A DNA stretch of 64,000 nucleotides, taken from positions 32,001 to 96,000 of the IMG/VR virus record IMGVR_UViG_3300028920_000027. One strand, 5' to 3'. Source of the stretch: a virus. The notes under the pieces are model-generated. The model worked only from the letters and a program-made list of their open reading frames with translations, searched no databases and was not told the DNA's origin. Shown piece by piece: positions 15,281-32,802 of the stretch; the first letter of the stretch is position 1, and each line of letters opens with the position of its first letter. The position numbers and the translations under genes are program-made.

Positions 15281-17117
15281 TCTCGATCCTCGGCCCCAAC
15301 AGGGCATCCAGAATGGGGTCGGGGTTGACCCCAATCTCCCGCAGTCGGGAGGCAATACGATCTACATCTTCATCTGGGTTTGTGAGAAAGACAGTAACGT
15401 TTTGAAGGGTCATCAACTCGACGTTGAGAGTCACCTGCGGCTTAGCAGTTTGAAGCTGCTCGTACTGCCGCCCGGAGAGCCCGGCCAACCCCGACTTGAA
15501 AACCCCCTCCACGGTCCCGTGTGTCCGGACAAGATCCCTGAGGACTTTCTTTGGTACTCTGGCAACTCCTGGGATCTCATCGGACGTATCTCCGCAAAGA
15601 GCCCTAAGCTGTACCATTGAACTTGGAAGTACCCCAAACAGTTTCTCAACATCGGCCGGAGAGGTGAACTCCAACTCCTTCCGACCCCCAACTGCTGGCT
15701 GCAAAACATGGGTCGTCAGGGTCACCAACTGAAGCAGGTCGTTGTCGGTGGAGAAGACGACGTTGACCTGACCCTTCAGATGATCGCGCGTCAGGGTTGC
15801 AATAACATCATCGGCCTCGGCCTCCGGATTGATGCCCTGATAGACCCCCAGAGCCGGAAGGATCTCCATCAAATAGTCGATCTGGTTGAAGCCCCTGTCA
15901 GAACTGGAAAATTTTGACATCCTCGATTGACGCTTTGCCTTATACCCCGGAAAAGCGTCCTTCCGGCTCTGGGACGACCCCGGAGCGTCCCAGGCGACAT
16001 ACAGCCGCGCGTTGGGGTACCGCTTGCGTAGAGAACCTAACCCTCGCAAAAAACCGAAGATCACGCCCGTCGGGCGTCCCAACTCATCGGTCAAGTCCTT
16101 CAAATTGGGTGCGTGTAGGCACCTGTAGGCCAAGTTCATCCCATCCACGATGACGTTCTGAGTCACATCGCCTCCATCCAGTTGTGCAACCTGCTGAGCC
16201 AGCCGATCGCAAGCGTCCACAAGCCGTTGGAATCTTTCCAGGACCCCCTGCATCCACGCCAACTCCACGATGACGTTCTCGATACCTGCCACCTTCCGAC
16301 CCAAGAAGTCTGTCTGATAGAAGGTTACAAACGACCACAATCTGCGACCCTTAACTACCCACTCTCCCAGCTGCTCGAACTCCGCCATGCTACTGTTGCA
16401 GTGCACAACGAGGGCGTCAGATGCGTTCGCGACTAGCGACCAAAGACGGCAACCCCGAAACTGCCAGTCAGCGAACCGCGAGTAATCCCCCCACGCCTCC
16501 TTCAACGGCAACAGGGGCTGGTCCTCCCAGGTCAGGTAGGGTCGCGCGTGCATCAGCCATTCGCGCAACCGCGAGACGTGGTGTGCCATGGGAGACCCAG
16601 GAGCACGCTCGATGACCTTCAGGAAGGTTCGCGGCAACGTAAGCAGACTTTGCTTACTCCGTAATTGAACGTAAACCTGAACCTTTCCCTGCTCAGGAAT
16701 GTCGGCGACGACTTGTGCCGGAATCGACTGATAGGGGCCTTTGACGATCTCCACAGTGTCGCCAATACAAATCCCCTGGTCGGCCTCGATGCGTACCTGA
16801 CGCTTCAGACGCTCGACATCTGCATCGGTCACGGTCGACAAGCGACGATCTTTCCCATTACCCTCCGCCAAAAGGCTCTGCACGTAACGGGAACCTTCGA
16901 GCTTGAGGTAGGCCGCGTCCTCGTGGTCGCGGCGCACGAAAGCGTACCCGTCCATCAAGTAGCGAACGACCCGGTCCTCCCCAATCTGGGTGATGCTCGC
17001 AGGAATGAATACCTCCCCCTCCCCCCCAATAACTCGTAGGATGGACTTCGAGATCTCGTCAGGATCCTCAGACTCCCCGCGCAGGCTAAGCTCCAGAACT
17101 ACCCAATCAGTTGGCAT
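15246..17117 (-). CDS. NusG/RfaH-like (NGN+KOW) domain fused to PolA-type 5'-3' exonuclease
   Basis: DWVVLEL...VFIP...LMDGYAFV (NGN) and IGDTVEIVKGPY (KOW); VIVDGMNLAYR, VAWD, EADDVIATL, STDNDL, GDTSDEIPGV (5'-3' exonuclease); start refined to ATG 17117. Confidence 0.8.
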   Translation of the reverse strand: MPTDWVVLELSLRGESEDPDEISKSILRVIGGEGEVFIPASITQIGEDRVVRYLMDGYAFVRRDHEDAAYLKLEGSRYVQSLLAEGNGKDRRLSTVTDADVERLKRQVRIEADQGICIGDTVEIVKGPYQSIPAQVVADIPEQGKVQVYVQLRSKQSLLTLPRTFLKVIERAPGSPMAHHVSRLREWLMHARPYLTWEDQPLLPLKEAWGDYSRFADWQFRGCRLWSLVANASDALVVHCNSSMAEFEQLGEWVVKGRRLWSFVTFYQTDFLGRKVAGIENVIVELAWMQGVLERFQRLVDACDRLAQQVAQLDGGDVTQNVIVDGMNLAYRCLHAPNLKDLTDELGRPTGVIFGFLRGLGSLRKRYPNARLYVAWDAPGSSQSRKDAFPGYKAKRQSRMSKFSSSDRGFNQIDYLMEILPALGVYQGINPEAEADDVIATLTRDHLKGQVNVVFSTDNDLLQLVTLTTHVLQPAVGGRKELEFTSPADVEKLFGVLPSSMVQLRALCGDTSDEIPGVARVPKKVLRDLVRTHGTVEGVFKSGLAGLSGRQYEQLQTAKPQVTLNVELMTLQNVTVFLTNPDEDVDRIASRLREIGVNPDPILDALLGPRIENGSIHHSSGPP

Positions 17118-19881
17118 CGCTCCTCGGGCTGGAAGTACGGACCAAGTACGCCTGGTGAGCGCGCCGCCACTCGGTGGGAGGGAGGAGTCGAAGCCCGCCG
17201 GGGACGCTCTGACGAGGAATCTCAACCTGGGGTGGCGGTTTCCGCTCATGACCCCGAGGTCGTTGGTGAGGCACTCCTTGCTCATCCAACGTCGTCAACG
17301 CCGCAAAGTCATTGCTCCCAAGTGAACCGATCCCATCTGGGCGACCGTGGGCCGGCATGGCAAGCGGCGGTGGAGGCTTGGGGGACTCCTGCTCTGGAGC
17401 CTCGCTCTCCACCTCCGCAGACGCCACAGGAGCAGAAATGGGGGCTGTGGCCTCCACTGGGGAAGGAGGTAATGCCAGAGGGGCTACAACTTGAAGGACC
17501 ATGGGCTGTGAGGGCACGACCGCTGTTTGAGGTATGCCACCACCCCCGGAAAGTGCAACGACGTCACACACCAACCCTGCCTTGGTCACGTGACGCACAC
17601 GCAAAAAGTACTCAGCCAGCTTCGTTACATTGTCCTTGAAAAGACTATACACCTGTTTGGCGAGACCCCGATCCATCAAACTGAAAGGCGCATGCATCTT
17701 GTAGGCGAGCCGATAGCTATTCATGGCCGCCTCGGCGAGGCCCGCGGCAACGTCGTCAGGGTCCAGAGTACCGCATAAATCGTCTACGATCCTGGCAGCC
17801 TCCCCAGGTTGACCCAGAGACAGGAGCACCTTGTAGTACTGAGTGACAGCATCGAGCCTGAGGTATGTTCGAGCCGACTCCAAGGATACAGGTCCAAGCT
17901 GGGCGATCATTTCGAGCTTGTTCAAGATGTCTCGAACATGGCCCTGCGAATGATCGATGACCACCAACAGGGCGTCATCCTCGTACTCAACCTTTTCAGC
18001 CTCCAAGATCTTCCTGAGCCTGACCTGGACATCATCGCGCGTGATGGGGCGCATAATGTGCTCCTCGCACCGTGACCGGATCGTGGAGCGGATCTTGTTG
18101 CCTTCGGTGGTGCAGAGGATGGCAACGAACCTCTTGTCTTCAATGGGCTTGAGCAGTACGTCCTGCGAGTCGCGGCTCATGCGGTGCATTTCGTCAAAAA
18201 CAATGACGCGCTTGGCGGCCCCCGGGACGTTAAACGCCAACTCATCGACGATGCGTCGAACGTTATCGATGGTGCCCGAGCTAGCGGCGTCCAACTCCTT
18301 GTAGGCCACCGAGGCTTCAGTCAACTGGGCTTGGCAGTTGTCGCAGCTGTTACAGGGCTCGCTCCCCCCTTGAAGGTCTTGGCAGAGCAGTGCCCGGGCC
18401 AGGATGCGAGCCAGGGTCGTGTTGTGGTTCATGAACCCCCCAGCTGCAAACATCTCTTGTCCAGGGACCGAAAGGTCAAACACTTCTGCCCGGCCCGGAG
18501 ATGTTTCGATTACCGGATCGAAGTAGTACCCTGTATCCAGCAAGTGCTTGAAGTGGGCATACCCAGGGCACCCTTTGAACTCGCTGACAATGCGCTGGAC
18601 CTGGCGATCCGTACACGACACACGCCCCCTCCGTGCCTGGAAGAAGTGGCTGGTGTCATGAGTCCGCAACTCAGAAGAAAGGCTCTCATAGAAGAAACGT
18701 AGGTGGGCCGCTTGGTAGGGCACCACTTCGTAAGTATTGGATAGTTGACGGCGACCCTTAGCGTGTCCACGAACGAGAGACCGTTGTAGCTGGCCCCGCT
18801 TTCGAGCCGAAAGAAAACCTACCTTGGACGCGAACACGTCGAGGGATGAGCGCCGAATACCGACCCTCCAGTAGACCCCGTACTCCGGATGGGGCTTGGG
18901 GCGCCGATAGGCCACCACCCCTAAATTCAACAACATCGCCTGCACCTGACGAGCGAGCTTAGGGCTCTTGGTGAGGGCCTCTACTCGGTACCCCGAGACG
19001 CTACCGTCACACTCAAAGTAACCTCGCAGAAACTCGCAAACGAGATGCTCAGGGGAGACCCTGATGGACCATGGCATTTCCTTCCCGCCAGCCTTCGCAT
19101 AGGAAACCCCGAGGAATGCCAGAAAATCCCTGAACTGAACACTGCTGCATCGAACCGCAACGAGACCTGGGCGCCGTTTGTCTGGTGAAATGAAACTCCC
19201 CCCGCCCAGGCGGTCTAAAAGACGCCTGGCATCATCCACGGTATCAGGCTCAGCTGTATGGACCGAGACACTTGTCCTACTCGTGCATGAACCGTCCCCT
19301 GCCAGATAGCCCAGCAACCGTGCCCACTCCAAGCTCAGGGTAGTCGGGGGGTTGAAGTCATGGCTGCTATGGTCATGGGGTCGTTTCGCGTAGGAGTAAC
19401 CCTCAATCAAAGGCCCTGTGCCAAAAAGTCCTGTCCCTCGCGAAAGGCACGCATAATCACCTTTGCGCACTTGACCTATCTCCCTCCACTCAATCTCACC
19501 CGATTTAGCCAGGATCTTGATGCGATGGTGGGGGGTCCCTTCGATGAAGAAGCCCAAACTAGTCTTGATGCGAACTGTGTCCCGGACCCCACCTCGATAC
19601 GAGAAAGCTGCCTCACCCACCCCCTGTTCTTGCCCAACGACAATATGCACAGGGTCGACGACATGGGGCCCACCCATAAGGTCTCCTATTTCGAGCAAAC
19701 CACGGTTCGTAGGGACCAAGGTCTCCTTAGACACACACTTCCCACGCCCGTGCCCGCCCGAGAAGATGTAGCTCGTGTCCAGGGCAGTCCCATTCTTCAA
19801 GCGCTGCTTGAGCACCTGGACAGGGCCCTCCTGCCCTAGCACGTCACCAAAAACGCGAGGTCGATACTTGATATCCCACAC
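17107..19881 (-). CDS. dnaX: DNA polymerase III gamma/tau clamp-loader subunit with intein
   Basis: KYRPRVFGDVLGQ, Walker A GRGK|TT, EPCNSCDNC Zn motif, FDEMHRM, LLKPIE, TIRSRC. Confidence 0.93.
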   Translation of the reverse strand: MWDIKYRPRVFGDVLGQEGPVQVLKQRLKNGTALDTSYIFSGGHGRGKCVSKETLVPTNRGLLEIGDLMGGPHVVDPVHIVVGQEQGVGEAAFSYRGGVRDTVRIKTSLGFFIEGTPHHRIKILAKSGEIEWREIGQVRKGDYACLSRGTGLFGTGPLIEGYSYAKRPHDHSSHDFNPPTTLSLEWARLLGYLAGDGSCTSRTSVSVHTAEPDTVDDARRLLDRLGGGSFISPDKRRPGLVAVRCSSVQFRDFLAFLGVSYAKAGGKEMPWSIRVSPEHLVCEFLRGYFECDGSVSGYRVEALTKSPKLARQVQAMLLNLGVVAYRRPKPHPEYGVYWRVGIRRSSLDVFASKVGFLSARKRGQLQRSLVRGHAKGRRQLSNTYEVVPYQAAHLRFFYESLSSELRTHDTSHFFQARRGRVSCTDRQVQRIVSEFKGCPGYAHFKHLLDTGYYFDPVIETSPGRAEVFDLSVPGQEMFAAGGFMNHNTTLARILARALLCQDLQGGSEPCNSCDNCQAQLTEASVAYKELDAASSGTIDNVRRIVDELAFNVPGAAKRVIVFDEMHRMSRDSQDVLLKPIEDKRFVAILCTTEGNKIRSTIRSRCEEHIMRPITRDDVQVRLRKILEAEKVEYEDDALLVVIDHSQGHVRDILNKLEMIAQLGPVSLESARTYLRLDAVTQYYKVLLSLGQPGEAARIVDDLCGTLDPDDVAAGLAEAAMNSYRLAYKMHAPFSLMDRGLAKQVYSLFKDNVTKLAEYFLRVRHVTKAGLVCDVVALSGGGGIPQTAVVPSQPMVLQVVAPLALPPSPVEATAPISAPVASAEVESEAPEQESPKPPPPLAMPAHGRPDGIGSLGSNDFAALTTLDEQGVPHQRPRGHERKPPPQVEIPRQSVPGGLRLLPPTEWRRAHQAYLVRTSSPRSDAN
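18421..19737 (-). mobile_element. Intein with LAGLIDADG endonuclease in DnaX (439 aa)
   Basis: Starts CVSKETLVPT, ends GGFMNHN followed by +1 Thr; LLGYLAGDGS and FLRGYFECDGS. Confidence 0.93.
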
Positions 19882-20396: not shown

Positions 20397-21104
20397 TCAC
20401 ACCACTAGGTTGGGGTCCAATCCTTCCATGAATACACCAAATCGCTCATCTCCCCAAGCTTCCCAAAGATCTCCCCAGTCCTTGGACAGCTTACTCTCTC
20501 CCTCAGGCGCAGCCATGGGTACGGCAGGGGGTAGGGCCACTTCGATACGCTCGAACTCGTCTTGGTGATCCCGACGGAAGGCGTAGGCTACCTTGCGACC
20601 CGTCTCGTCGTTGTCGTAGCCGATCCACACCTGATCGACCATTCGGTGCAAAATCCTGAGTAAATCAGGGGAAATCCCTGCCTTAAGCGTAGCCACCACC
20701 TCAGGGTAGGTCCGTTGGACCGGGCACAGGTCGAACACCCCCTCGACCAACCAGATCCGGTTGCTCTGCCAGATGTGTGGCATGGCCTGATGTAGCCCGA
20801 AGAGGACCGCCTCGTCCCCTTCAAGTAAGTAGTCCATGTAGCCCTTGCGGACGATGGGGCGGAACTGAATGCCCTTGACTTGCCCTACCGAGTTCGTCAA
20901 CGGGAAAACCCAGACCCGGTTCAGGCGGTGCTTCTCAGCCCACCTGGCAAACCCAGGCGGCAAGCCCTCAGGCATCTCGTCCAGGTAGCCAACGTGGTAA
21001 AAGTCAATCTGCTCATCGGTCATGCCCCGACGCCACAAGCGGAAACGAAGGTCCTCGTCGAGCTGTTGCTCGGCGTGCTGCACCAGGCCGTCAATCCAGG
21101 TCAT
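20397..21104 (-). CDS. dnaG: DnaG-type primase core (TOPRIM), no N-terminal zinc-binding domain
   Basis: WVFPLTNSVGQVKGIQFR, LFGLHQA, LVEGVFD and GYDND (DxD). Confidence 0.8.
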   Translation of the reverse strand: MTWIDGLVQHAEQQLDEDLRFRLWRRGMTDEQIDFYHVGYLDEMPEGLPPGFARWAEKHRLNRVWVFPLTNSVGQVKGIQFRPIVRKGYMDYLLEGDEAVLFGLHQAMPHIWQSNRIWLVEGVFDLCPVQRTYPEVVATLKAGISPDLLRILHRMVDQVWIGYDNDETGRKVAYAFRRDHQDEFERIEVALPPAVPMAAPEGESKLSKDWGDLWEAWGDERFGVFMEGLDPNLVV

Positions 21105-21705
21105 TGACCACCATCACCGCGCGGCCAATGCGAGTCACCATCAACCCCACGCGGTCATCAACCCGCGAATAAATCCCCGCCAAACCTGGTGCCGCCAAGA
21201 GTAGAATCACGCCAGGAGGGCCCGGTAACACTTGAAGCCCACCCTCGATCTCCGCCACACACCCCATCGTCAACACCAACTCATCAATGGACTTGCCGTC
21301 CAAACCTGGACAAATGGGGGCCATCCTGTCACGCGCCAAGACCAGGTACCGAGGCTGGTAACCTTGACTCGTCATTGCAGCCACCGCAGCCTTTAGAGTC
21401 ATCTGATACGCCCCGGGAAATGGCGACCTGGAAGGGCGCGAGGCTCCCTCTATGATCCGAGCTTGTAAACCAACCAGCAGCTTCGACTCATCCTCCAAGC
21501 TGCACTCGCTGAACGCGAACCGAACGCGGCCGTTCCGTATGCCAGGTTGGACAGCCATCCCCCTCATATTGGTGACCAGAATCGGAAGGTCTTCGGAAGT
21601 AACCCTTCGTTCCGATATCACAGGGGTGGCAAACCCGCCCCCGTGAGCAATGCTGGCAGCCTGTCGTCGGTTTCGCTCGACATGAAAAATGCGTTCAAGA
21701 GTCAT
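21091..21705 (-). CDS. Hypothetical protein (204 aa)
   Basis: Operon-coupled on both sides. Confidence 0.65.
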   Translation of the reverse strand: MTLERIFHVERNRRQAASIAHGGGFATPVISERRVTSEDLPILVTNMRGMAVQPGIRNGRVRFAFSECSLEDESKLLVGLQARIIEGASRPSRSPFPGAYQMTLKAAVAAMTSQGYQPRYLVLARDRMAPICPGLDGKSIDELVLTMGCVAEIEGGLQVLPGPPGVILLLAAPGLAGIYSRVDDRVGLMVTRIGRAVMVVNDLD

Positions 21706-22288
21706 GGGACCTCTCCGCGAGCTGTTTCAATTGATCAGCTCCGTACCCCTCCAGCAGCTTGATGGGGTCCTCCTGCACTTTCATCGGGGGGTGGATGTCA
21801 ACCTTGGCGAAGAACAAAAACCAAACTCTCTTCCACCAGGGCATCTGATCAACATAAGGAGCCACGATTTGACCCAAGACCCATAGCAACTCATGGACCT
21901 CGGGCAGATGCTTCTTCAGCCAATCAGCGTCGTTGACGTTCCGACGGAACTCAGCAAAAACCTCCTCCTTTTTGAGAGACTGGACCGGCTCGAACTTACC
22001 ACATCTCTGAGCGTCGACCGGTTCATCACAGAGGTCCCCTGGCCACGTCTCGCTGTCCTCGGACCCGTACATGCAAAGCCCTATCTCTTGAACGACTGGC
22101 AACCCCCCGGCCGCCGTGATGCGGTTATAGCTGGGGTTGGGGCCCCCCTCGACGGTCTTGCGGTAGTCGAGGGAATGACGCTGATTGAAGCGACAGTGCT
22201 GGGGTAGGCGTGGAATGGACAGCCGCCGCATCAGCTCGCTGAACAACAGCGCTCGAACTCGGTCCTCGATCTCCTTTAAATTTCGCAT
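21695..22288 (-). CDS. Hypothetical Cys-containing protein (197 aa)
   Basis: Operon-coupled; HC...C...C...C pattern. Confidence 0.65.
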   Translation of the reverse strand: MRNLKEIEDRVRALLFSELMRRLSIPRLPQHCRFNQRHSLDYRKTVEGGPNPSYNRITAAGGLPVVQEIGLCMYGSEDSETWPGDLCDEPVDAQRCGKFEPVQSLKKEEVFAEFRRNVNDADWLKKHLPEVHELLWVLGQIVAPYVDQMPWWKRVWFLFFAKVDIHPPMKVQEDPIKLLEGYGADQLKQLAERSHDS

Positions 22289-22290
22289 TA

Positions 22291-22965
22291 TCAGGCACCC
22301 CTCAGGGTCAGGTGCCGACGGCCACCCTCGACGACCTCGACACAGCGGTAAGCTCGGTTGGCGTGCGTGACGTAACCTTGCTTGTGAGTGACCAGCAGCA
22401 CGTCGATGCCGGTCTCCTTGGCGAGCTGGCGAAGAAAGTGCCCAGTACGCTCAACGTACTCTTCACTGACGGCGCCCAAGCTTTCGTCAAGAACCAGTAT
22501 GGGGATTCGCTTGAGCTTGACCATCGTCATCAAGCGAATGATAAGCGAAGCCACACTACAAGGCCCGCCCCCGAACGAATCCAGGGGCTTGCCTCGAATG
22601 CTCAAGGGGTTCTCGGGCTTACCCTCCCTGATGTAGAACTCGATCCAGACCTTGCCATGCTTAGGCACCAGCTCGGCCTCGAAGCTCAGGTCAAGATCAT
22701 GGAAAATAGCTTCCAAACCTTCTCCCACGATCTTGCGCAGTGCCTCAACCTGATCGTTGATGAGCAAGTCCATGAGCTTGCGGAGGCCCTGCCCCGTTTG
22801 ATCGAGCATCAAGCTTTGGTGGTCGAGGTGATCAATCTGCTTCCGGATCTGGGATCCTTGTGTACGAAGGCGGTCCCGTAACGTCACCAGACGCTCGGCC
22901 TTCAACTCCAACTGACGGAGTCGAGCGATCAATCCCGAGAGGGCATGAAGCGTGTCACTTGACAC
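22291..22965 (-). CDS. sbcC: Rad50/SbcC C-terminal half (ABC-ATPase signature lobe)
   Basis: Short coiled coil, then SFGGG signature, Walker B ILVLDES, H-loop LLVTH; no Walker A. Confidence 0.85.
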   Translation of the reverse strand: MSSDTLHALSGLIARLRQLELKAERLVTLRDRLRTQGSQIRKQIDHLDHQSLMLDQTGQGLRKLMDLLINDQVEALRKIVGEGLEAIFHDLDLSFEAELVPKHGKVWIEFYIREGKPENPLSIRGKPLDSFGGGPCSVASLIIRLMTMVKLKRIPILVLDESLGAVSEEYVERTGHFLRQLAKETGIDVLLVTHKQGYVTHANRAYRCVEVVEGGRRHLTLRGA

Positions 22966-24173
22966 AAGTGCGCCTTATTCTCATCGTCCTGTCCTATAAG
23001 GACCTGACCGTTGTCATCGAGCCAGAATTCGTCGATGGTGCGGAAGGTCGCAACCTTCTTCTTACCCTTGGGCGCCAAGATTGCAACTCGAAGCTCGATC
23101 TCATGAGCCTTGACGGGGTTCACCAGGTCGAGAAGGTGGTTGACGTTGGCATTGATGGCAAAGCCATCCTCCCCTTCGACAGGGTCAACCCCCACGGGCA
23201 CGACCCCCACGGGCACGCTGTTAGCCACATTGGTACCCCCATCGCTCGCCACAAAACGGAGACTGGATTCGGAACTCGTATAGATCACCCGAATCTTGTC
23301 GAGCTTGGGGTCCAACTCGGCACGAGCATACTTCAACGCCTTTACCAGGAAGGTGCGGGGGGCCCGCAAGATGTACTTGTCGGCCTTGAGTGGGTAATAG
23401 CTGAATTTCCCATGCTCCCTCTCATGCTTGGCGCACCCCAATATAGCCCCTTCAGAGTTGACGAAGTAGACCATATTCGGAGCCGTCAAAACCTTGACCA
23501 TTCCCGACGAGTGGGACAAAAACGACAGGATCTGGGGCAGATGTTGCACCCCGAGTCCAAGACCCTTGTCTTTGAACGCCTCGCAATAAAAGTAGAACGC
23601 GCAGACGCCCGTGGCAGCGAATAGGAAGCCATTACCCTTAGCCCACTCCTCCTTCGAGGAATCAAAGATCTGGAACGTCTGAAAGTGCTCGTTCTCGTCA
23701 CGAGCGGCACTGCTCTTGGCCAGGTATGGTTTAGCCAAGGTAAGAGCCTCCCTAAGGACGGCGATAGGGTACTCCCGCTCACCCTCAGCGTCGGACAAGT
23801 CACAGGGACTCATAAAGCGGGCCTCAAATGATGTCTTCTTGCTGGAGGCTCCGCCCTCGGTCTCGTAGGAGACCGAGCATTCCTCGGGATTCGACGAGAA
23901 CTCAATCCACCCGTCAAGGCACTGGAGCGCGCCAACCTGATTGGCAGGGTAGATGAAGCTCCCCTCCCCTCGCACGTCCTCGACTTCAAGGGCCGCTCGT
24001 GACGTGTGGAATTGATCACGAGAATGCACCTCACACTTACCGTCCTTGATGACAAACAAGTACCCCGCCCCTCCCTGGGGAGTCACCGAGGAGGGGGTTA
24101 CAATCCCAACCAACCTCAACACGGCATGGAGGTGTGTCGCCTGTGTGCGAAACGTGATGTTGCTCATACTCAT
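22929..24173 (-). CDS. dnaN: Sliding clamp (DNA Pol III beta-like)
   Basis: About 410 aa, three-domain length; ANVNHLLDLV..V....IELRV and terminal RFMPSR resemble DnaN motifs; co-occurs with DnaX/HolA/HolB. Confidence 0.75.
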   Translation of the reverse strand: MSMSNITFRTQATHLHAVLRLVGIVTPSSVTPQGGAGYLFVIKDGKCEVHSRDQFHTSRAALEVEDVRGEGSFIYPANQVGALQCLDGWIEFSSNPEECSVSYETEGGASSKKTSFEARFMSPCDLSDAEGEREYPIAVLREALTLAKPYLAKSSAARDENEHFQTFQIFDSSKEEWAKGNGFLFAATGVCAFYFYCEAFKDKGLGLGVQHLPQILSFLSHSSGMVKVLTAPNMVYFVNSEGAILGCAKHEREHGKFSYYPLKADKYILRAPRTFLVKALKYARAELDPKLDKIRVIYTSSESSLRFVASDGGTNVANSVPVGVVPVGVDPVEGEDGFAINANVNHLLDLVNPVKAHEIELRVAILAPKGKKKVATFRTIDEFWLDDNGQVLIGQDDENKAHLCQVTRFMPSRD

Positions 24174-24451
24174 CCCTGTCCTTCGTCGTAGGTGCTCAGT
24201 GCATCTTCAACATTTGTCAGATCCTTCTCGAACTGGTCCAGCAGCTCGACCAACCGCTTCTCTGCCTTGTCCCGTTCAGACTTGATGGTCTTGGGGTCGT
24301 AGCCCGCGGCCTTGATTTCCTGGCTGAGGTCAGCCAGCTCCCTCTTCTTGGCGCCCAACTCGCCCTTGAAACGCTCCTTCTTCCCTTTGGCGGCTTCATA
24401 CCGACGTGACAAGTCATCAAAACGCTTCCTGAGTTGCTCGAAGTCGGCCAT
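24170..24451 (-). CDS. Small coiled-coil protein (93 aa)
   Basis: MADFEQLRKRF...; AAGGAG RBS and GGTGTAAAGG motif upstream. Confidence 0.75.
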   Translation of the reverse strand: MADFEQLRKRFDDLSRRYEAAKGKKERFKGELGAKKRELADLSQEIKAAGYDPKTIKSERDKAEKRLVELLDQFEKDLTNVEDALSTYDEGQG

Positions 24452-24467
24452 TGATCTCCTTCTCCCT

Positions 24468-25367
24468 TTACACCGCGCCATGCGGCGCTGCACGGCGCCG
24501 CGCCTCCAATTTTTTGACAACGGCCGCTCCTCGAGGGCACAGGTCCTGAGTGGCGAACGTGCAAAAACGACAATTCTGCTGACTAGGCTTCGGTTTGAAG
24601 GTCTTTTTCACCTGCTCGATGCCCTGCCCATCAGTCTCTTCGAGCCAAGCTGCTGTCTGAGCGATGATGCCCATCACCTTGGCCTTGAAAGCGTCCAACT
24701 TACCCTCGTCGAAGTCCAACCACATGAGGGCGTCCTGAGGCGAAAACCTCCACAGGAAGTATCCCAACTTGTCAGGGGCTTTGCCGAAACGCTCTCGGTG
24801 CAGTACGCCGTACCACAACAGCTGGTCCCAATCGAGGTAGCGGACTGCACGCTTCTTGGAGCCCTTACCGTCCAAGATCACCTTATCGCACAGGGGCTTG
24901 GCCCGCCGAATCATGAAGTCGACGCGACCCCCCAACTTGTGCCCGTCTACCTCGGAATCGAGCTTGATCTCGGCCCGCGCCATGGGGCCCAGCAGTCGGT
25001 GAAACCGGATGGCACCGAGCGCCCGAGGGACCGTATCTCGAACGTCAGCCTCCAGCTCCTCTCGTGAAGCGTAGTTACTGCCCTCCCCATCGAACTCGAT
25101 GTAACGACCCTTCTTGTTTGACTCTTCGTCGATCACCCGCTGCACGGTCTCATCGACCAAGTCCATGACGAGCTTACGGGGCTTGGGATCTCGCGAGCGC
25201 CACAGCTCTCTCTCGTAGAAATCCTCGATGAGCGACGACACAATGGACCCATAGAGCGTGTTGACGGCGTTCTCCTCCTTCCCCAGATCTGGCTGGCCCA
25301 CATAGGCAAACCAGTAGCGAAGGGCACAGTCCCGGAGGTACTTGTAACCGGAGTAAGAGAGGTACAT
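24468..25367 (-). CDS. PD-(D/E)XK (RecB/Cas4-like) nuclease
   Basis: LSYSGYKYLRDC..RYW, GRVDF, ILDGKGS, QLLWY, C-terminal CRFC...C. Confidence 0.85.
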   Translation of the reverse strand: MYLSYSGYKYLRDCALRYWFAYVGQPDLGKEENAVNTLYGSIVSSLIEDFYERELWRSRDPKPRKLVMDLVDETVQRVIDEESNKKGRYIEFDGEGSNYASREELEADVRDTVPRALGAIRFHRLLGPMARAEIKLDSEVDGHKLGGRVDFMIRRAKPLCDKVILDGKGSKKRAVRYLDWDQLLWYGVLHRERFGKAPDKLGYFLWRFSPQDALMWLDFDEGKLDAFKAKVMGIIAQTAAWLEETDGQGIEQVKKTFKPKPSQQNCRFCTFATQDLCPRGAAVVKKLEARRRAAPHGAV

Positions 25368-27434
25368 CTACTTCTTCCTCGCGCGGGCACGCTCTAGATA
25401 CTCCAGAATCAAGCTGGAGACTTCCTGACTCACGTCCAGCGACCCGATGTTGTCCTCCAGGGACGCCGATGTGTCCAAATCCTGCTGCTGTCGCAGCGAC
25501 CGCGCAAACTCCTCGATGACCTCCTGACGCTGCTCCTGCCGATCTTTCTTCTCCAGGTCGAACACCTCACTGGCAGGGGGTACCCGCAGGGGGACCTCTT
25601 GGGCGCTGATCCCGCTGAAGTTCGTCTGGAGGATCGCAACCTTAGGGACCCGAGTCAGATTCTCCTTAACCAGAGCGCCACGACTGAGAGCGCCCAGGTT
25701 GACGAAGGTCTTCCCGCCAACCTTCACGATCCCCTGGTCGATGTGCCAATGCCCAAAGCAGTTGTGTACCAGCAAACCCCCAGCAACGTACTGCTCTGAA
25801 CTGGTTCGGAAGTTGTGGACGGGCCCCTTGTAGGCGACGTCGCATATTTCAGTGATCCTTGCATAATACAAGCCCTCATGGAAGAAGCCGGACACACGGG
25901 TTTTCTGACGCTCTGGGGGCCTAATCCCCATGCGAGAGGCTAACTCGCAACCAGAGTCCCCATAGAAGGCCACAATGTGGCAGGGGTGGTTCTGGTGCTG
26001 TTTAGGAGGACACACTTGGAAGCAGGGGCGCCAGCCCACAGACAGAGCCAGGAAGAACAATTGGAAAGCCAGTTTCCGAGAAGCTGTAGCCCCCGCAACC
26101 TCTACCTTGGTCGACCTGGCATGCCCATCCCCCAACAGCCAGCCAAGCAGAAGCTCCTTACGATCAATAGTCGGACGTTCCCATACCCAAGCAGAGACCT
26201 CTTTTTGGTCTGAATAGCGGCCGCCGTGCTCTTTGAAAAAGGCGGTGATGTTGAGACCGTAGGCGCACAGTTGGATGCAGTTGGGGTTATCTGGGTGCGC
26301 GTGCTCATGAACGGTCAAACCGAAGTGACGCTTCACAAGAGTCTTGACGTCGAGGTGTAAGGCATGTTCGAGAATATGAAAACTCCAGCCAACACCGGCT
26401 ACAGGGGCGCCCTTGCGATTGTTGATCAAGTGCCCCTCAGCAAGATAATAACCTAGTAGTCGAGACAGTCCTGCATACGAACGAGCCTCCGTGGGAACTG
26501 AAGGAACGGGCACCCCCAAGTAGTCACCCTTAACAAGGCTTCCTGCGGCGCACCAAGTGGGCTCCACGAAAGGCTTGTCAGTGCAACTACTACAGGGCGC
26601 TGATGAGGCCGTCTTATCTGGGTAACAACGGCGATTAACCTTGGCGGCCCAGAAGGGGTGTTCTGACGTAACACCTTCAACGAGCGGAGGTAGCCCCTCG
26701 ACCTCGAAATGGATCAGAGGCTCATTCACTTGCCTTGGGGGGTGGACAGCCTCCACCACGGTCGACTTTGAGCCCGCCATGTGCTGGCCGACCTGCACGT
26801 CCTCAATGGGGATAGGTCGGTATAAGGCGTCCAGTACAGGTGTCTGTGGGGGAAAGCACCAGGCATCAGGGCCCCCTTCATAGACGAGATCCCTGTATCG
26901 GAAAACTGGCTCCCCAAAAAACTCCTCAACGCGGGTAGGCGGATTCTCAGCAGCAAGCTGGTGGACGATGGCTACCAAGTGCTCCCCGTCCTTCTTGTGT
27001 GCCTGCCGCAGCTCGTCGAGGGTACGGTTGGGGGCGTAGGGAAACCCCACCACGCGTACGCATTCGGGCCCCTCCCCAAACGTCACGTCCCGCAACTTCT
27101 TGAACACCCCCGCCTCGTAGAGGACGCCGATGGGTTGCCTATCCACAGTGTCGAGGTTGTTATGGGCCATGTCGTGGTTGCCCTCGACATGGTACACCGG
27201 ACAAGGATAACCAGCGTGTAGAGACGCCGTACGCGCTACCAAGGCGTGTGAATTGCGAGTGGCCGCCTTGACGTGGAAGTAGTCACCCCCATCGAGCACC
27301 GCCTCGACCGCTTGCTCTTCCGCGATGTGACCCACCTGAGTCAGCAGGTCCCACACCTCTGCCTGGTAGTCGCCCTTCCAACTCAAGGGGGAGCGATCTG
27401 ATACATGGCAATCGGTGCGGAACAGCAGCTTCAT
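25368..27434 (-). CDS. sbcD: Mre11/SbcD-like metallophosphoesterase nuclease with intein
   Basis: TDCH, GGDYFH, GNHD, VHQ, GHWH motifs; intein sits just before GHWH. Confidence 0.88.
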   Translation of the reverse strand: MKLLFRTDCHVSDRSPLSWKGDYQAEVWDLLTQVGHIAEEQAVEAVLDGGDYFHVKAATRNSHALVARTASLHAGYPCPVYHVEGNHDMAHNNLDTVDRQPIGVLYEAGVFKKLRDVTFGEGPECVRVVGFPYAPNRTLDELRQAHKKDGEHLVAIVHQLAAENPPTRVEEFFGEPVFRYRDLVYEGGPDAWCFPPQTPVLDALYRPIPIEDVQVGQHMAGSKSTVVEAVHPPRQVNEPLIHFEVEGLPPLVEGVTSEHPFWAAKVNRRCYPDKTASSAPCSSCTDKPFVEPTWCAAGSLVKGDYLGVPVPSVPTEARSYAGLSRLLGYYLAEGHLINNRKGAPVAGVGWSFHILEHALHLDVKTLVKRHFGLTVHEHAHPDNPNCIQLCAYGLNITAFFKEHGGRYSDQKEVSAWVWERPTIDRKELLLGWLLGDGHARSTKVEVAGATASRKLAFQLFFLALSVGWRPCFQVCPPKQHQNHPCHIVAFYGDSGCELASRMGIRPPERQKTRVSGFFHEGLYYARITEICDVAYKGPVHNFRTSSEQYVAGGLLVHNCFGHWHIDQGIVKVGGKTFVNLGALSRGALVKENLTRVPKVAILQTNFSGISAQEVPLRVPPASEVFDLEKKDRQEQRQEVIEEFARSLRQQQDLDTSASLEDNIGSLDVSQEVSSLILEYLERARARKK
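25761..26858 (-). mobile_element. Intein with LAGLIDADG endonuclease in Mre11/SbcD (366 aa)
   Basis: Starts CFPPQTPV, ends GGLLVHN followed by +1 Cys; LLGYYLAEGH and LLLGWLLGDGH. Confidence 0.92.
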
Positions 27435-28783
27435 CAGTGAATACGATGTCCCGGTTCGAGCCGTTGCTCACAAGTTGGGCACGCGCCAAGTGCCTCGAAC
27501 TCGCTGATCAACTGGGTGACTTCATTCTCACACCGAACACAGCGAGCTTCTGCTTCTTCGACTTCAGCCGCCAGCTTGTCGTACCGAGTCGCAGTCTGGC
27601 AAAGCCAGACGAACTGCTGGTAACTTGCCTTCAAGGTTTTAGGGTCCAGCAGCTTGGGCTTGACCGCCTCGGTGAGCGTCAAAAACTTGACCTTGAGCCG
27701 CTTCAGGTAGTTGAGCCACTTGACCAAACGCTTCAGCTCTTCCCTCGCCTGATGGATGGGCTCGAGTTTCGGCAGCTCGACCAGGCAGGTTTGCTCCAGC
27801 GTCACAATCTGCGGCTCCAGAGGCGTCAGCCGATCGCTCCAACCGGTCAGCAAGGTAAACTCTTCCCGCTGCTCGGCAGGGGGTTTCATGAGAGCCGGCT
27901 TCGTAGCAGTCTCCAGGGCGTCCACATGGGCCACCAAAGCTTCGTAGTCATGCTCGAAGCGCCTCAGGTCCAGGATTCTGTGAAAGCTCTCCTGAAGGCT
28001 CTGAGGGACCGGTAACTCGGGCTTAACCGCCGTGCGCAAAGCTCGAATGGCCACCGCGTACTCTTCCAGCTTCGACAGAAACCCCAAGAGCCGATCTAGC
28101 TCGTCCCCCACAGCCTCGACCCGCTTTCGGTCGGCCTCAACTTCCCGGACCCGAGTGGTGGCCTCATCGAGGCCGTCGTAGGTCTTCAACTCGTCTTCCA
28201 GCTTGATGAGGTCCCCCACCCGAACCTTGCGTTCGGACACCGCCGCACGCCGGTCTTTCTCAACCAAGCGTAGGGCCTCGTTCAGGTCATCGAGCTTGGC
28301 CACGTCCCCAAGGACGTCCGCCGCTACTGAGCCCGACTCCCCGAGCAAGAAGATCGGCTTGAACTGGTCCCCCACCTGGACAACAACCTTGTCGTCCCCA
28401 ACTTTGAGTGGCTCGAACCCTTCCAAGAAGTGGAGGTTGCCACGTTCGACCTTAGTGTAGACCTGCTTCTTTCCCGCAGTATTCCACACGGTGTACTGAT
28501 TGACAGCATCACCCTTCTCCCACTTAAAGGTCATCTTGCCAACGATCTCGATACGCACCGTGCAATGACACTTGCACTTCTTGGCGTTGCGCCGAATACG
28601 GGCGCACGTTGCAGGGCTATGGCGCACAAAGTCTGACCCCTTGGCTCCGGTAAGAGCATACTTGACGGCTCGGATCAGGGCGCTCTTCCCAATGTTCGAC
28701 CTCCCGACCAAGGCGGTGAACCCGTCAACCTCGACCTCGACGTGCTCCAGGCTCTGAAAGTTGTCGACTGTGATCTTCAGCAT
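27434..28783 (-). CDS. sbcC: Rad50/SbcC N-terminal half ending at the zinc hook
   Basis: ITVDNFQSL, Walker A GRSNIGKS, Q-loop QVGDQ, long coil, terminal CPTC. Confidence 0.85.
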   Translation of the reverse strand: MLKITVDNFQSLEHVEVEVDGFTALVGRSNIGKSALIRAVKYALTGAKGSDFVRHSPATCARIRRNAKKCKCHCTVRIEIVGKMTFKWEKGDAVNQYTVWNTAGKKQVYTKVERGNLHFLEGFEPLKVGDDKVVVQVGDQFKPIFLLGESGSVAADVLGDVAKLDDLNEALRLVEKDRRAAVSERKVRVGDLIKLEDELKTYDGLDEATTRVREVEADRKRVEAVGDELDRLLGFLSKLEEYAVAIRALRTAVKPELPVPQSLQESFHRILDLRRFEHDYEALVAHVDALETATKPALMKPPAEQREEFTLLTGWSDRLTPLEPQIVTLEQTCLVELPKLEPIHQAREELKRLVKWLNYLKRLKVKFLTLTEAVKPKLLDPKTLKASYQQFVWLCQTATRYDKLAAEVEEAEARCVRCENEVTQLISEFEALGACPTCEQRLEPGHRIH

Positions 28784-30177
28784 CAGTCAGCCAGAGCTTC
28801 CTCCGCCTCCGCAACATCATCAGGCTCGTCCACGTCCCCCATGCCTTCCCCACTATCTTCCTCTTCGATATCTGAAGCCTCGAAGGCGTCTTCGTCGAAG
28901 TCCGAGGGGACGTCGTCGAGAACTGTATCTCCGGCGTCTCCCATGATGACGTTGAGGCCGTCGAGGCCCTCTTCAATCAAATCTTCCTGAGAGGGGTCCT
29001 CACCCAGGGCCGCCAAATCTTCCGAGCGAATGGCCTCCCCCACCAATCCCTTGACCTCTGTGAAAATGGATGGGTGCTCGCGGAAGAAGGTTCGCATTCC
29101 CTCTCTACCCTTGATCTTGTGCGGACCGTAGGTGTACACCGCACCATTGCGCTTGACGATACCGTGAGCACTTGCAGTATCGATGATACTGAACAGCTCG
29201 TCGATGCCCTGTCCATAGCGGATGAAGATCTCAGTCTCGTGACCTTGCTTACCATCAAGCTTGTTCTTGATGACACGGACGTTGGTCTTGTTGCCGTAGG
29301 GGAAGGACCGGGACTTGCGCGTGGCAGGGTCCTTGCGCTTGACATACTCATGTCCCTTGCTGGTCGTACGCAATCGAACGGCACAGTAGAACTTGAGGGC
29401 CTTACCGCCTGATGTGTTTTTGTTGGCGCCCTTGGCCTGCTGACCGTCGATGGCCGAGCGCTCCTGGTTGACCCAGATAAGGGAGGTACCCCTCCCAGGC
29501 GCGTCGTGGAGCCACTTCTGAATCAGGGGCAGGAAGCGACTCATCTGGCGAGCCTGAGCACCGATGGTCTCTGCCTGGTCGACCTTCTTGCCCAAGCTCG
29601 ATGCAGGGATCATGGCAGACACACTGTCCACCACGATCAGGTCGGCCCCCGCCATGATCGAGATGTAGATGTCCTTGACCCCATCCTCCAACGTGTTGGG
29701 TTGGTAGATGAGGAGATTACTCTGATCGAAGTTGACCCCTAGATTCTGGGCATACCCATGTTGGAGGGCATGCTCAAAGTCGAGAAACACCGCCACGCCG
29801 CCTTCCTGTTGGGCACTAGCGACGGCCTCCAACGACATGGTGGTCTTCCCGCTCGACTCTGGACCGTACAGCTCGACCATGTAGCGGCGGGGGTACCCCG
29901 GACAGACGAGAGTCTTCCCATCAGTTGCCAGAGTGCCACCGATCAAGGTATCCACCAAGAGACTACCTGACGGTACCACATCGAGCCCACTCAAGTTCTT
30001 TGAGACAGGATCAGCGCCCATGTTCTTCTTGATGTTGGCGCGGATAAGGCCAGCTACGTCCTTCTTGGACCCTGCCTTCTTCGTGACTGCCGCCTTCTTG
30101 ACGGGAGCCTTCTTCGCCGCCTTCTTGACGGGAGCCTTCTTCGCCGGGGTAGTGATGGTTTTCTTCGTAGCAGCCAT
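28783..30177 (-). CDS. recA: RecA recombinase with Lys/Ala-rich N-tail and acidic C-tail
   Basis: GPESSGKT, DFEHAL, VDSVSAM, QARQMS, SGGKALKFY, KNK. Confidence 0.95.
   Translation of the reverse strand: MAATKKTITTPAKKAPVKKAAKKAPVKKAAVTKKAGSKKDVAGLIRANIKKNMGADPVSKNLSGLDVVPSGSLLVDTLIGGTLATDGKTLVCPGYPRRYMVELYGPESSGKTTMSLEAVASAQQEGGVAVFLDFEHALQHGYAQNLGVNFDQSNLLIYQPNTLEDGVKDIYISIMAGADLIVVDSVSAMIPASSLGKKVDQAETIGAQARQMSRFLPLIQKWLHDAPGRGTSLIWVNQERSAIDGQQAKGANKNTSGGKALKFYCAVRLRTTSKGHEYVKRKDPATRKSRSFPYGNKTNVRVIKNKLDGKQGHETEIFIRYGQGIDELFSIIDTASAHGIVKRNGAVYTYGPHKIKGREGMRTFFREHPSIFTEVKGLVGEAIRSEDLAALGEDPSQEDLIEEGLDGLNVIMGDAGDTVLDDVPSDFDEDAFEASDIEEEDSGEGMGDVDEPDDVAEAEEALAD
30092..30145. repeat. 27-bp tandem repeat x2 (AKKAPVKKA)
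   Basis: gccttcttgacgggagccttcttcgcc at 30092 and 30119. Confidence 0.9.
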
Positions 30178-31821: not shown

Positions 31822-32802
31822 TCAGAGGTCCTCAAAAAGATCGGAATAGTCCTCTCCTTCTCCATCAAGGAATGCATCCACATCGTCATCCTCGGTGTCG
31901 CCCGTATTGTGGCCCTCACCCCCGCCCTCCCCATCATCCTGGGCTTCCTCTTCCTCGACAGGGCCTTCGCCTTCGCCCTCACCCCCGCCCTCCCCATCAT
32001 CCTGGGCTTCCTCTTCCTCGACAGGGCCTTCGCCTTCGCCCTCTCTCCCATCCTCTTCCTCAACAGGCTCTTCACCGGGGCCTTCACCCTCTCCCTCGTC
32101 GCCGGTCTCGTCGGACAACAGGCTATCAACATCGATACCATCATCCCTGGAAGACCCTTCAGCGAGCTCAGGCTCAGCGAGCTCGACCTTCTTGGCTGGC
32201 GGCGGTTTCTCCGGCTCTTCCGACTTGCCTTCACCCTCGACTCCTTTGAGGATATTCTCGTCGAAAATGACGGATAGCTCGTCCTCGTCGGGGACCCCGA
32301 CCTTCCCTCGACCCTCGCCCGTTTCGTCGCCGTACTGCCCCCCTGCCTCGACCTCGACTTGGAGGAGCGATCGTTGAAGACGAATGGCACTCATTGTCTC
32401 TTGAAGTTCCTGGTGCCGCATCTTGACGGCCTTTTCAACGAAGTCCACGTCAGCAATGGTATGCTTGATCTTCTCGATCTTCTGGTACTCATCCCTTTGG
32501 AGCATAGCGATCATGGCGCGGCGATCTTCGATCGCTGGAAGACGACTGACTCGGTTGTCACTAACCAGCAGGTTCTGGGCGCCAATGTCGTAAGCCGTTT
32601 GAAGCTCGCTCAACTGCATCGTCAACATGTGCTTTTGACGACTGAGCTTGGACCGCAGGACCCCCGCAGCGTTGAGAAAACCACGAGTCTTGCTGATTAT
32701 CCCCATCAGGTACTCAGTACCTCTGGCAGCGGGATTAGGATCAAGCTCAATGACGTAGGTGTCAATCTGGTCGTAGATCTTTTGGGCTTGCTCGGGGGTC
32801 AT
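31822..32802 (-). CDS. Coiled-coil protein with long acidic tail (326 aa)
   Basis: Helical N-half; E/D/G-rich C-half containing a repeat. Confidence 0.75.
   Translation of the reverse strand: MTPEQAQKIYDQIDTYVIELDPNPAARGTEYLMGIISKTRGFLNAAGVLRSKLSRQKHMLTMQLSELQTAYDIGAQNLLVSDNRVSRLPAIEDRRAMIAMLQRDEYQKIEKIKHTIADVDFVEKAVKMRHQELQETMSAIRLQRSLLQVEVEAGGQYGDETGEGRGKVGVPDEDELSVIFDENILKGVEGEGKSEEPEKPPPAKKVELAEPELAEGSSRDDGIDVDSLLSDETGDEGEGEGPGEEPVEEEDGREGEGEGPVEEEEAQDDGEGGGEGEGEGPVEEEEAQDDGEGGGEGHNTGDTEDDDVDAFLDGEGEDYSDLFEDL
31912..32043. repeat. 63-bp tandem repeat x2 (GEGEGPVEEEEAQDDGEGGGE)
   Basis: Identical units start at 31912 and 31975. Confidence 0.9.

Follow-up and report, generated by a model that had tools for sequence, protein, structure and literature searches.

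The arm of Rad50/SbcC is classically a single chain folded back on itself with the zinc hook at the fold, and the locus described here raises the question of whether a phage can dispense with this continuity and build the enzyme from two polypeptides. The stretch of DNA analysed (hereafter the window) comprises 64,000 nucleotides, positions 32,001 to 96,000 of the IMG/VR record IMGVR_UViG_3300028920_000027, a 182-kb sequence from a huge uncultured phage whose completeness is estimated at ~38%. On its minus strand, an initial annotation had recognised a Rad50/SbcC split into two genes lying 4.5 kb apart, designated here the N-half (27434-28783, 449 amino acids, aa) and the C-half (22291-22965, 224 aa), and all the open reading frames (ORFs) involved are present as described. 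They belong to a tightly packed minus-strand operon (22291-30177) encoding, in this order, RecA, the N-half, Mre11, a PD-(D/E)XK nuclease, a 93-residue protein (cc93), a beta sliding clamp and the C-half. We consider it highly probable that these genes specify, in two parts, a single functional Rad50/SbcC-type ABC ATPase, which would act with the adjacent Mre11 in phage DNA-end processing and recombination.

The N-half combines an ABC N-lobe, a segmented helical arm and a terminal hook motif. It matches Pfam AAA_23 (E 2e-8) and, over its full length, the PHROGs family phrog_16465 ('exonuclease', E 5e-19), and the lobe is also matched by AAA_29 and SMC_N. In an alignment of 31 sequences, residues G27, S29, N30, G32, K33, and S34 of the Walker A motif GRSNIGKS (residues 27-34, 28682-28705, minus strand) are invariant, as are both Q-loop candidates, Q136 and Q140. 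The same holds for C435, P436, and C438 of the motif CPTC (residues 435-438, 27470-27481, minus strand), with which the chain had been said to end and which is followed by the stop after 11 residues. A terminal CxxC is found in all of 69 N-half sequences, 62 of which have the form CPxC, and the tail beyond it measures 3-22 aa. The CPTC motif is predicted to be the zinc hook, located at the far end of the arm. A four-Cys knuckle within one chain (CVRC-x19-CPTC) was considered and rejected, as CVRC, 20 residues upstream of CPTC, is peculiar to the N-half of the window and not conserved; a C2H2 site within one chain using a His residue after the hook was also discarded, such a His being lacking in distant members. 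As to the fold, the N-lobe modelled with AlphaFold2 (AF2) resembles the N-lobes of Rad50, SMC, and RecF (Foldseek, 3aux, E 1e-3; VIA Z 9-10 over residues 1-128/150).

The complementary motifs are carried by the C-half, an 82-residue helix followed by an ABC C-lobe. Its GTG start lines up with the N-termini of its homologues, it matches phrog_15167 ('ATPase') over its full length (E 1.5e-17), and its AF2 model (predicted local distance difference test score, pLDDT, 90.6) consists of a single helix (residues 6-87) and then the C-lobe, in agreement with the earlier description of a short coil preceding the signature, Walker B, and H-loop (THK). Across 40 aligned C-half sequences, the signature variant FGGGP (residues 131-135, 22561-22575, minus strand) occupies the position expected ahead of Walker B, the Ser of the canonical LSGG[EQ] being replaced by a Gly; G132 and G133 are invariant and F131, G134, and P135 are conserved at >=90%. 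The Walker B motif ILVLDE (residues 156-161, 22483-22500, minus strand) is followed by the D-loop SLGAV, with D160, E161, and L163 invariant in the same alignment, and both T193 and the H-loop histidine H194 (LVTHK, 22384-22386, minus strand) are conserved at >=90%.

The two proteins thus hold, one each, the lobe with Walker A and Q-loop and the lobe with the signature variant, Walker B, and H-loop. The best structural matches of the C-half by Foldseek are C-terminal fragment chains of SMC/Rad50 heads (5h66_B, 1e-8; 3qkr_B, 9a9j_B, 1f2t_B, and 1ii8_B), and the N-lobe matches the corresponding A chains. Several of these structures derive from the laboratory two-chain Rad50 of Pyrococcus furiosus (1F2T/1F2U, 1II8, 3QKR; co-expressed segments), in which the head is likewise made of separate N and C polypeptides; unlike these engineered constructs, which have neither arm nor hook, the split in the window is natural and conserved, and its N chain keeps both. 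By analogy with the solved Rad50 structures, we infer that the N-half and the C-half would assemble into one head. Assignment to Rad50/SbcC rather than to SMC or RecN is preferred because of the hook and of the coupled Mre11 gene, the N-half and Mre11 genes being translationally coupled through a TGATG junction. The family call rests on fold, hook, and Mre11 partner, the profile matches to Rad50, SMC, and RecN in the PDB being weak (E ~1e-3 to 1e-2). Filing the protein under SMC or RecN was rejected: Pfam and PHROG scans detected neither the hinge of SMC nor a kleisin-type partner, the tip of the arm carries CPxC, which the head-to-head dimers of RecN lack, and the nuclease Mre11 is the partner gene. 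The usual arrangement of Rad50, with both lobes on one chain and matched antiparallel strands, is not what is found here (~280 versus 82 helical residues).

The split is not a peculiarity of the window. Both halves occur in all of the 54 related metagenome loci that were retrieved (52 in IMG/VR, 2 in public assemblies), with 26-63% identity. The whole cassette, which runs from RecA through the N-half, Mre11, PD-(D/E)XK nuclease, cc93, and clamp to the C-half and continues into two unknown genes and a primase, is kept in 50 of these 54, so that both the split and the gene order recur among relatives, where the initial annotation had proposed to look for them. The one-to-one count of the halves was taken from complete relatives, the record of the window covering only ~38% of its own genome: five complete or near-complete relatives (437-529 kb) contain exactly one N-half and one C-half each and no unsplit SbcC. 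Separate partners elsewhere in the genome had been named as a finding that would speak against a joint Rad50; this count speaks for a heteromeric Rad50, as had been proposed, together with the complementarity of the motifs, the joint presence of the halves in 54 of 54 loci, and the constant position of the cut, 3-22 residues past the terminal CxxC in 69 of 69 sequences. Could the halves nevertheless be the decaying remains of a gene that was disrupted, or pieces of unrelated SMC-like ATPases with no joint function? The weak similarity of each half to Rad50, at the PDB profile E values given above, would fit such a view, which we nonetheless hold to be very improbable: both ORFs are intact and retained in the 54 loci at the identities given above with invariant catalytic residues, complete genomes have one of each and no alternative partner, a PHROG family exists for each half, and the C-half family spans thousands of clusters.

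Indeed, an exhaustive C-half profile search returned 4,258 clusters at E<=1e-3, 2,567 of which at E<=1e-10; the best 150 of the 4,258 span 98-324 aa, and most of them are stand-alone proteins of 200-240 aa with a full-length match. For the N-half, the stand-alone homologues recovered by a word-index search number more than 240; they measure 365-466 aa and lie on contigs reaching 466 kb. Fused close relatives were not detected, the C-half profile run against longer proteins giving one distant 747-aa SMC_N protein (E 4e-4), which is weak evidence. PHROGs itself holds a separate family for each half (phrog_16465 and phrog_15167). Distant N-halves (LR745208.1, L050, L052, and L057) all end in CPxC; farther along come a gene for a coiled coil (84-129 aa), another gene (377-383 aa), and the C-half.

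A cultured representative is found in Bacillus phage 0305phi8-36. Its gp8 is an Mre11 fused to an N-half (Metallophos 10-239 and AAA_23 343-588) and ends in KCPTCNQ about 20 residues before the stop. The N-half of the window is homologous to this Mre11-Rad50 fusion and shares its CPTC end; unlike in gp8, Mre11 is unfused in the window. The C-half is gp5, two genes downstream of gp8, with a signature region SRGGG, and gp7 is a 92-aa homologue of cc93 with a GYDPK turn (hhalign 83%, E 9e-6). No Pfam family was found for gp6, and its candidacy as a small clamp was abandoned as it has no similarity to the clamp profile. A study of Mre11-Rad50 fusions (Yoshida, Claverie and Ogata 2011, PMC3175470) had listed gp8 among them and stated, for the Bacillus phage, that one segment of the P-loop NTPase "was not observed". 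The segment reported as unobserved is the separate gene gp5, which corrects the published remark of a missing ATPase segment. A jumbo-phage overview handles SbcC as a single protein (PMC7824862), we found no description of a natural Rad50 split in the open-access literature, and the split Rad50 is apparently undescribed in print.

In other jumbo phages the halves are dispersed (Microbacterium phage Magritte and locus L061). In Magritte, a cultured actinophage, the N-half is gene 155 (L063:4983-6035, 350 aa), annotated as hypothetical, and the C-half is gene 2 (L003:284-934), annotated as an exonuclease, ~39 kb away across the genome ends; annotated Mre11 genes are lacking within 5 kb of the former and within 8 kb of the latter. 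Gene 1 of Magritte was considered as a cc93 homologue and rejected, having no GYDPK motif and a different composition.

If the head is rebuilt from two chains, the question becomes how the arm is made. The initial annotation had described ~250 aa of coil in the N-half. A helical region is indeed predicted, from ~154 to 432 (~280 helical residues), and it is not a continuous coiled coil: the AF2 model shows six helices (154-200, 205-253, 260-291, 304-332, 341-374, and 381-432) separated by Pro-rich linkers. The arm proper (residues ~205-432, 27488-28171, minus strand) comprises five of these helices and is built of ~41-residue tandem repeats joined by VPD/KPxLP linkers. The repeat consensus, VPDxxxLxxLxxKVxxLxxFxxxLxxRxxxVxxLxWVxxL, corresponds to one amphipathic helix and a Pro-containing linker; its phasing is detected in relatives too, and the N-half alignment shows a clean 41-column indel. 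The N-half falls into length classes in 44 loci, of 354 aa (1 locus), 399-414 aa (28), 445-464 aa (11), and 487-494 aa (4), which represent three to six repeats. Across the same loci, the standard deviation of length is 30 for the N-half, 5 for the C-half (211-241 aa), and 1.6 for cc93 (89-94 aa). In the single-chain AF2 model of the N-half (predicted template modelling score, pTM, 0.34), the arm helices are extended and not packed on one another, and residues 151-436 align solely to long filamentous helices.

The protein cc93 (24170-24451, minus strand, 93 aa) is a hairpin of two ~40-residue helices around an invariant-like AGYDPK turn. Its alignment (38 sequences, 89-94 aa) has a mean column identity of 54%, compared with 55% for the ATPase core and 34% for the clamp, and no Pfam or PHROG family matches it. 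Since it is conserved like the ATPase core and follows the split to 0305phi8-36 in the absence of clamp or PD-(D/E)XK genes, cc93 is probably a third, accessory subunit of Rad50. Furthermore, its first helix and AGYDPK turn align weakly with the last N-half helix and its LGxCPTC hook (hhalign probability 39%, E 3e-4), which hints that cc93 derives from a hook hairpin whose cysteines were lost.

Such a descent would also suit a Rad50 in three pieces, in which cc93 is the detached hook-proximal part of the returning coil and N-half, cc93, and C-half together rebuild the canonical antiparallel arm. The constant location of the cc93 gene between the halves, a place kept as far as gp7 of 0305phi8-36, and a conservation equal to that of the ATPase core are in its favour. 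However, cc93 is made of two ~40-residue helices and not of a single strand, and, added to the ~55 free residues of the C-half helix, it is too short for an N-arm of 230-340 residues. The N-arm gains and loses 41-residue repeats over a range of 140 aa, and neither cc93 (89-94 aa) nor the C-half (211-241 aa) changes with it; because both lengths are constant while the N-arm varies, neither protein supplies a matching return strand. No fused form of cc93 turned up in a profile search of longer proteins, which is weak evidence. We therefore regard a three-piece arm as unlikely, and the earlier proposal that the 93-aa ORF may provide the missing descending coil finds no support, in that form, in the comparison of lengths.

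By analogy with the solved Rad50 structures, the head would be rebuilt non-covalently from the N- and C-lobes, and a short coiled-coil base would form by antiparallel pairing of the C-half helix and the first N-half helix (154-200), which is highly conserved. The C-terminal helix-loop-helix of Mre11 would dock on this base, whose counterpart is the two-chain Rad50 catalytic domain made in the laboratory. For what lies past the base we favour, tentatively and with clearly less confidence than the split itself, an arm made of the N-half alone, as a segmented array of 3-6 single-helix repeats of ~41 residues. In an Mre11(2)-Rad50(2) complex, both arms would run alongside each other in register, and two C-terminal CPxC motifs around one zinc ion would staple their tips, closing a rod or ring that has no returning strand, with cc93 packing as a third subunit on the arm or the base. 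Pairing in register would account for the gain and loss of repeats on one gene. In rod-form Rad50, the hook acts as a constitutive dimerisation module inside one complex and the arms can run parallel as a rod (PMC6969161; bioRxiv 10.1101/2020.06.24.160820); the side-by-side arms and the zinc shared at the tip proposed here resemble this form, in which each arm is a two-stranded antiparallel coil, unlike the arm of the window, which past the base would contribute one strand. A somewhat more speculative claim is that this amounts to a new SMC-like arm, with a short two-chain base, single-chain 41-residue repeats, parallel pairing of protomers, a C-terminal zinc staple and, as an obligatory third subunit, a 93-aa hairpin that resembles the hook but has no cysteines.

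Repeats of one helix each, joined by Pro linkers, could also zigzag, and the arm might then fold back into a compact intramolecular bundle, with the hook as a local zinc cap and cc93 serving the clamp or the PD-(D/E)XK nuclease. The one or two His residues that follow CPxC in many members could complete a single-chain site, and the cc93 gene lies directly between the nuclease and clamp genes. Yet AF2 leaves the arm helices unpacked, the post-hook His is not conserved in distant members, and going through 3, 4, 5, and 6 repeats would reverse the chain direction and shift the hook from end to end. Moreover, gp7 of 0305phi8-36 stays with the split Rad50, where the flanking gp6 and gp8 match neither clamp nor PD-(D/E)XK nuclease. 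We judge this bundle to be improbable, even more so than an arm in three pieces.

Some observations weigh against the split Rad50 with paired N-half arms as proposed. The fold matches cannot by themselves tell a Rad50 head from that of SMC or RecN in the models compared. Gene 155 of Magritte has no CxxC at all, so the hook motif is not universal in the wider split family. In canonical Rad50, the signature serine touches ATP across the dimer, and with a Gly in its place in FGGGP the ATP-driven engagement of the heads may differ. Finally, the parallel pairing of the arms is deduced from length variation, and a zigzag bundle, or binding to a different protein, would be alternatives for the repeat array.

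Compared with T4 gp46/gp47 and E. coli SbcC/SbcD, the system of the window has the same two lobes (Walker A/Q-loop and, with a variant signature, Walker B/H-loop), a CPxC hook and an adjacent co-translated Mre11/SbcD phosphoesterase, and it sits likewise in a phage replication-recombination module by a clamp, a clamp loader, and a RecA/UvsX-type recombinase. Unlike T4 gp46 and SbcC, its Rad50 consists of two polypeptides whose N chain stops 3-22 residues past the hook. All that is left of the returning coil is the free part of the 82-residue helix, the outgoing arm consists of 41-residue repeats in variable number, and the signature reads FGGGP. It differs further by the conserved gene for a 93-aa hairpin partner and by a cluster H55-x4-C60-x9-C70-x-C72 in the N-lobe (FVRHxxxxCxRxxxxxKKCKC, 28568-28621, minus strand). 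This cluster, invariant in the N-halves of huge phages, is absent from gp8 of 0305phi8-36 and from Magritte, and may form a structural zinc site of a kind that canonical Rad50 does not have.

The remaining genes of the operon, all on the minus strand, include those that had been placed between the halves, and family matches together with the clamp profile bear out the identities given to Mre11, the PD-(D/E)XK nuclease, and the clamp. RecA (28783-30177, 464 aa) precedes the N-half. The junctions, read in operon order, are TGATG, TGATG, TAGATG, a 16-nt gap with GGAG, ATGA, a 37-nt overlap, and a 2-nt gap, so that the operon-style overlaps reported at both halves (TGATG and 37 nt) are indeed there. 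The PD-(D/E)XK nuclease (Cas4/RecB-like, 24468-25367, 299 aa; PF12705, E 7e-17) keeps its place in the operon across the huge-phage clade. The product of 22929-24173 (414 aa) is, by profile comparison with PDB beta clamps, a true DnaN-like clamp, matching 8dt6 over its full length (E 3e-12, query 3-360 versus chain 1-344). The 3' end of its gene overlaps the GTG start of the C-half by 37 nt (22929-22965), and the overlap measures 34-40 nt in most relatives; this conservation suggests that both genes are translationally coupled.

Mre11 (25368-27434; Metallophos E 3e-7; phrog_100, SbcD-like) is 688 aa long because it contains a 366-aa LAGLIDADG intein (25761-26858, minus strand), intein-free orthologues measuring 320-332 aa. 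The boundaries were drawn by comparison with these orthologues, the LAGLIDADG_3 match being weak, and place the intein from Cys193 to Asn558 with a Cys at +1, immediately ahead of the catalytic GHWH (junctions DAW/C and VHN/CFGHWH). The Mre11 proteins of the relatives L009, L033, L040, and L056 (698-717 aa) have the intein too, and most relatives are without it. The clamp-loader gene of the window (17107-19881, minus strand, DNA_pol3_delta2/AAA, 924 aa) likewise contains an intein, with matches to Intein_splicing and two LAGLIDADG_3 stretches, and the gene for ribonucleotide reductase in relative L005 carries an intein as well; inteins seem common among the replication genes of this huge-phage clade.

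Downstream of the C-half, nearly all relatives have two genes without family, in the window 21695-22288 and 21091-21705 (minus strand, 197 and 204 aa), after which comes a Toprim primase (20397-21104); the 197-aa and 204-aa genes might belong to the same module as the split Rad50. On the other side of the operon lies a 326-aa ORF (31822-32802, minus strand) whose N-terminal half looks helical by eye; its C-terminal half consists of a long low-complexity stretch rich in Glu, Gly, and Asp, with DYSDLFEDL at the end. This acidic tail recalls those of single-strand-binding or mediator proteins. The ORF, which had also been suggested as a source of the missing coil, had no family match and no link to the N-half arm was seen.

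The split accounts for thousands of phage genes labelled merely 'ATPase', 'exonuclease' or 'hypothetical'. How the length and stiffness of the arm and the hook signal to the ATPase head of Rad50 is still debated. In this respect, the split system has separable parts (the head lobes, a modular arm, and a small partner), and the cultured phage 0305phi8-36, with gp8, gp7, and gp5, allows them to be tested directly. Should the proposed arm of single-chain repeats be correct, which we put forward with due caution, arm length would be tuned in evolution by the gain and loss of repeats on one gene alone. More generally, the existence of a natural design, very widely distributed, whose chain ends at the hook and which all but lacks a returning strand indicates that the folded-back coil is not essential to Rad50.

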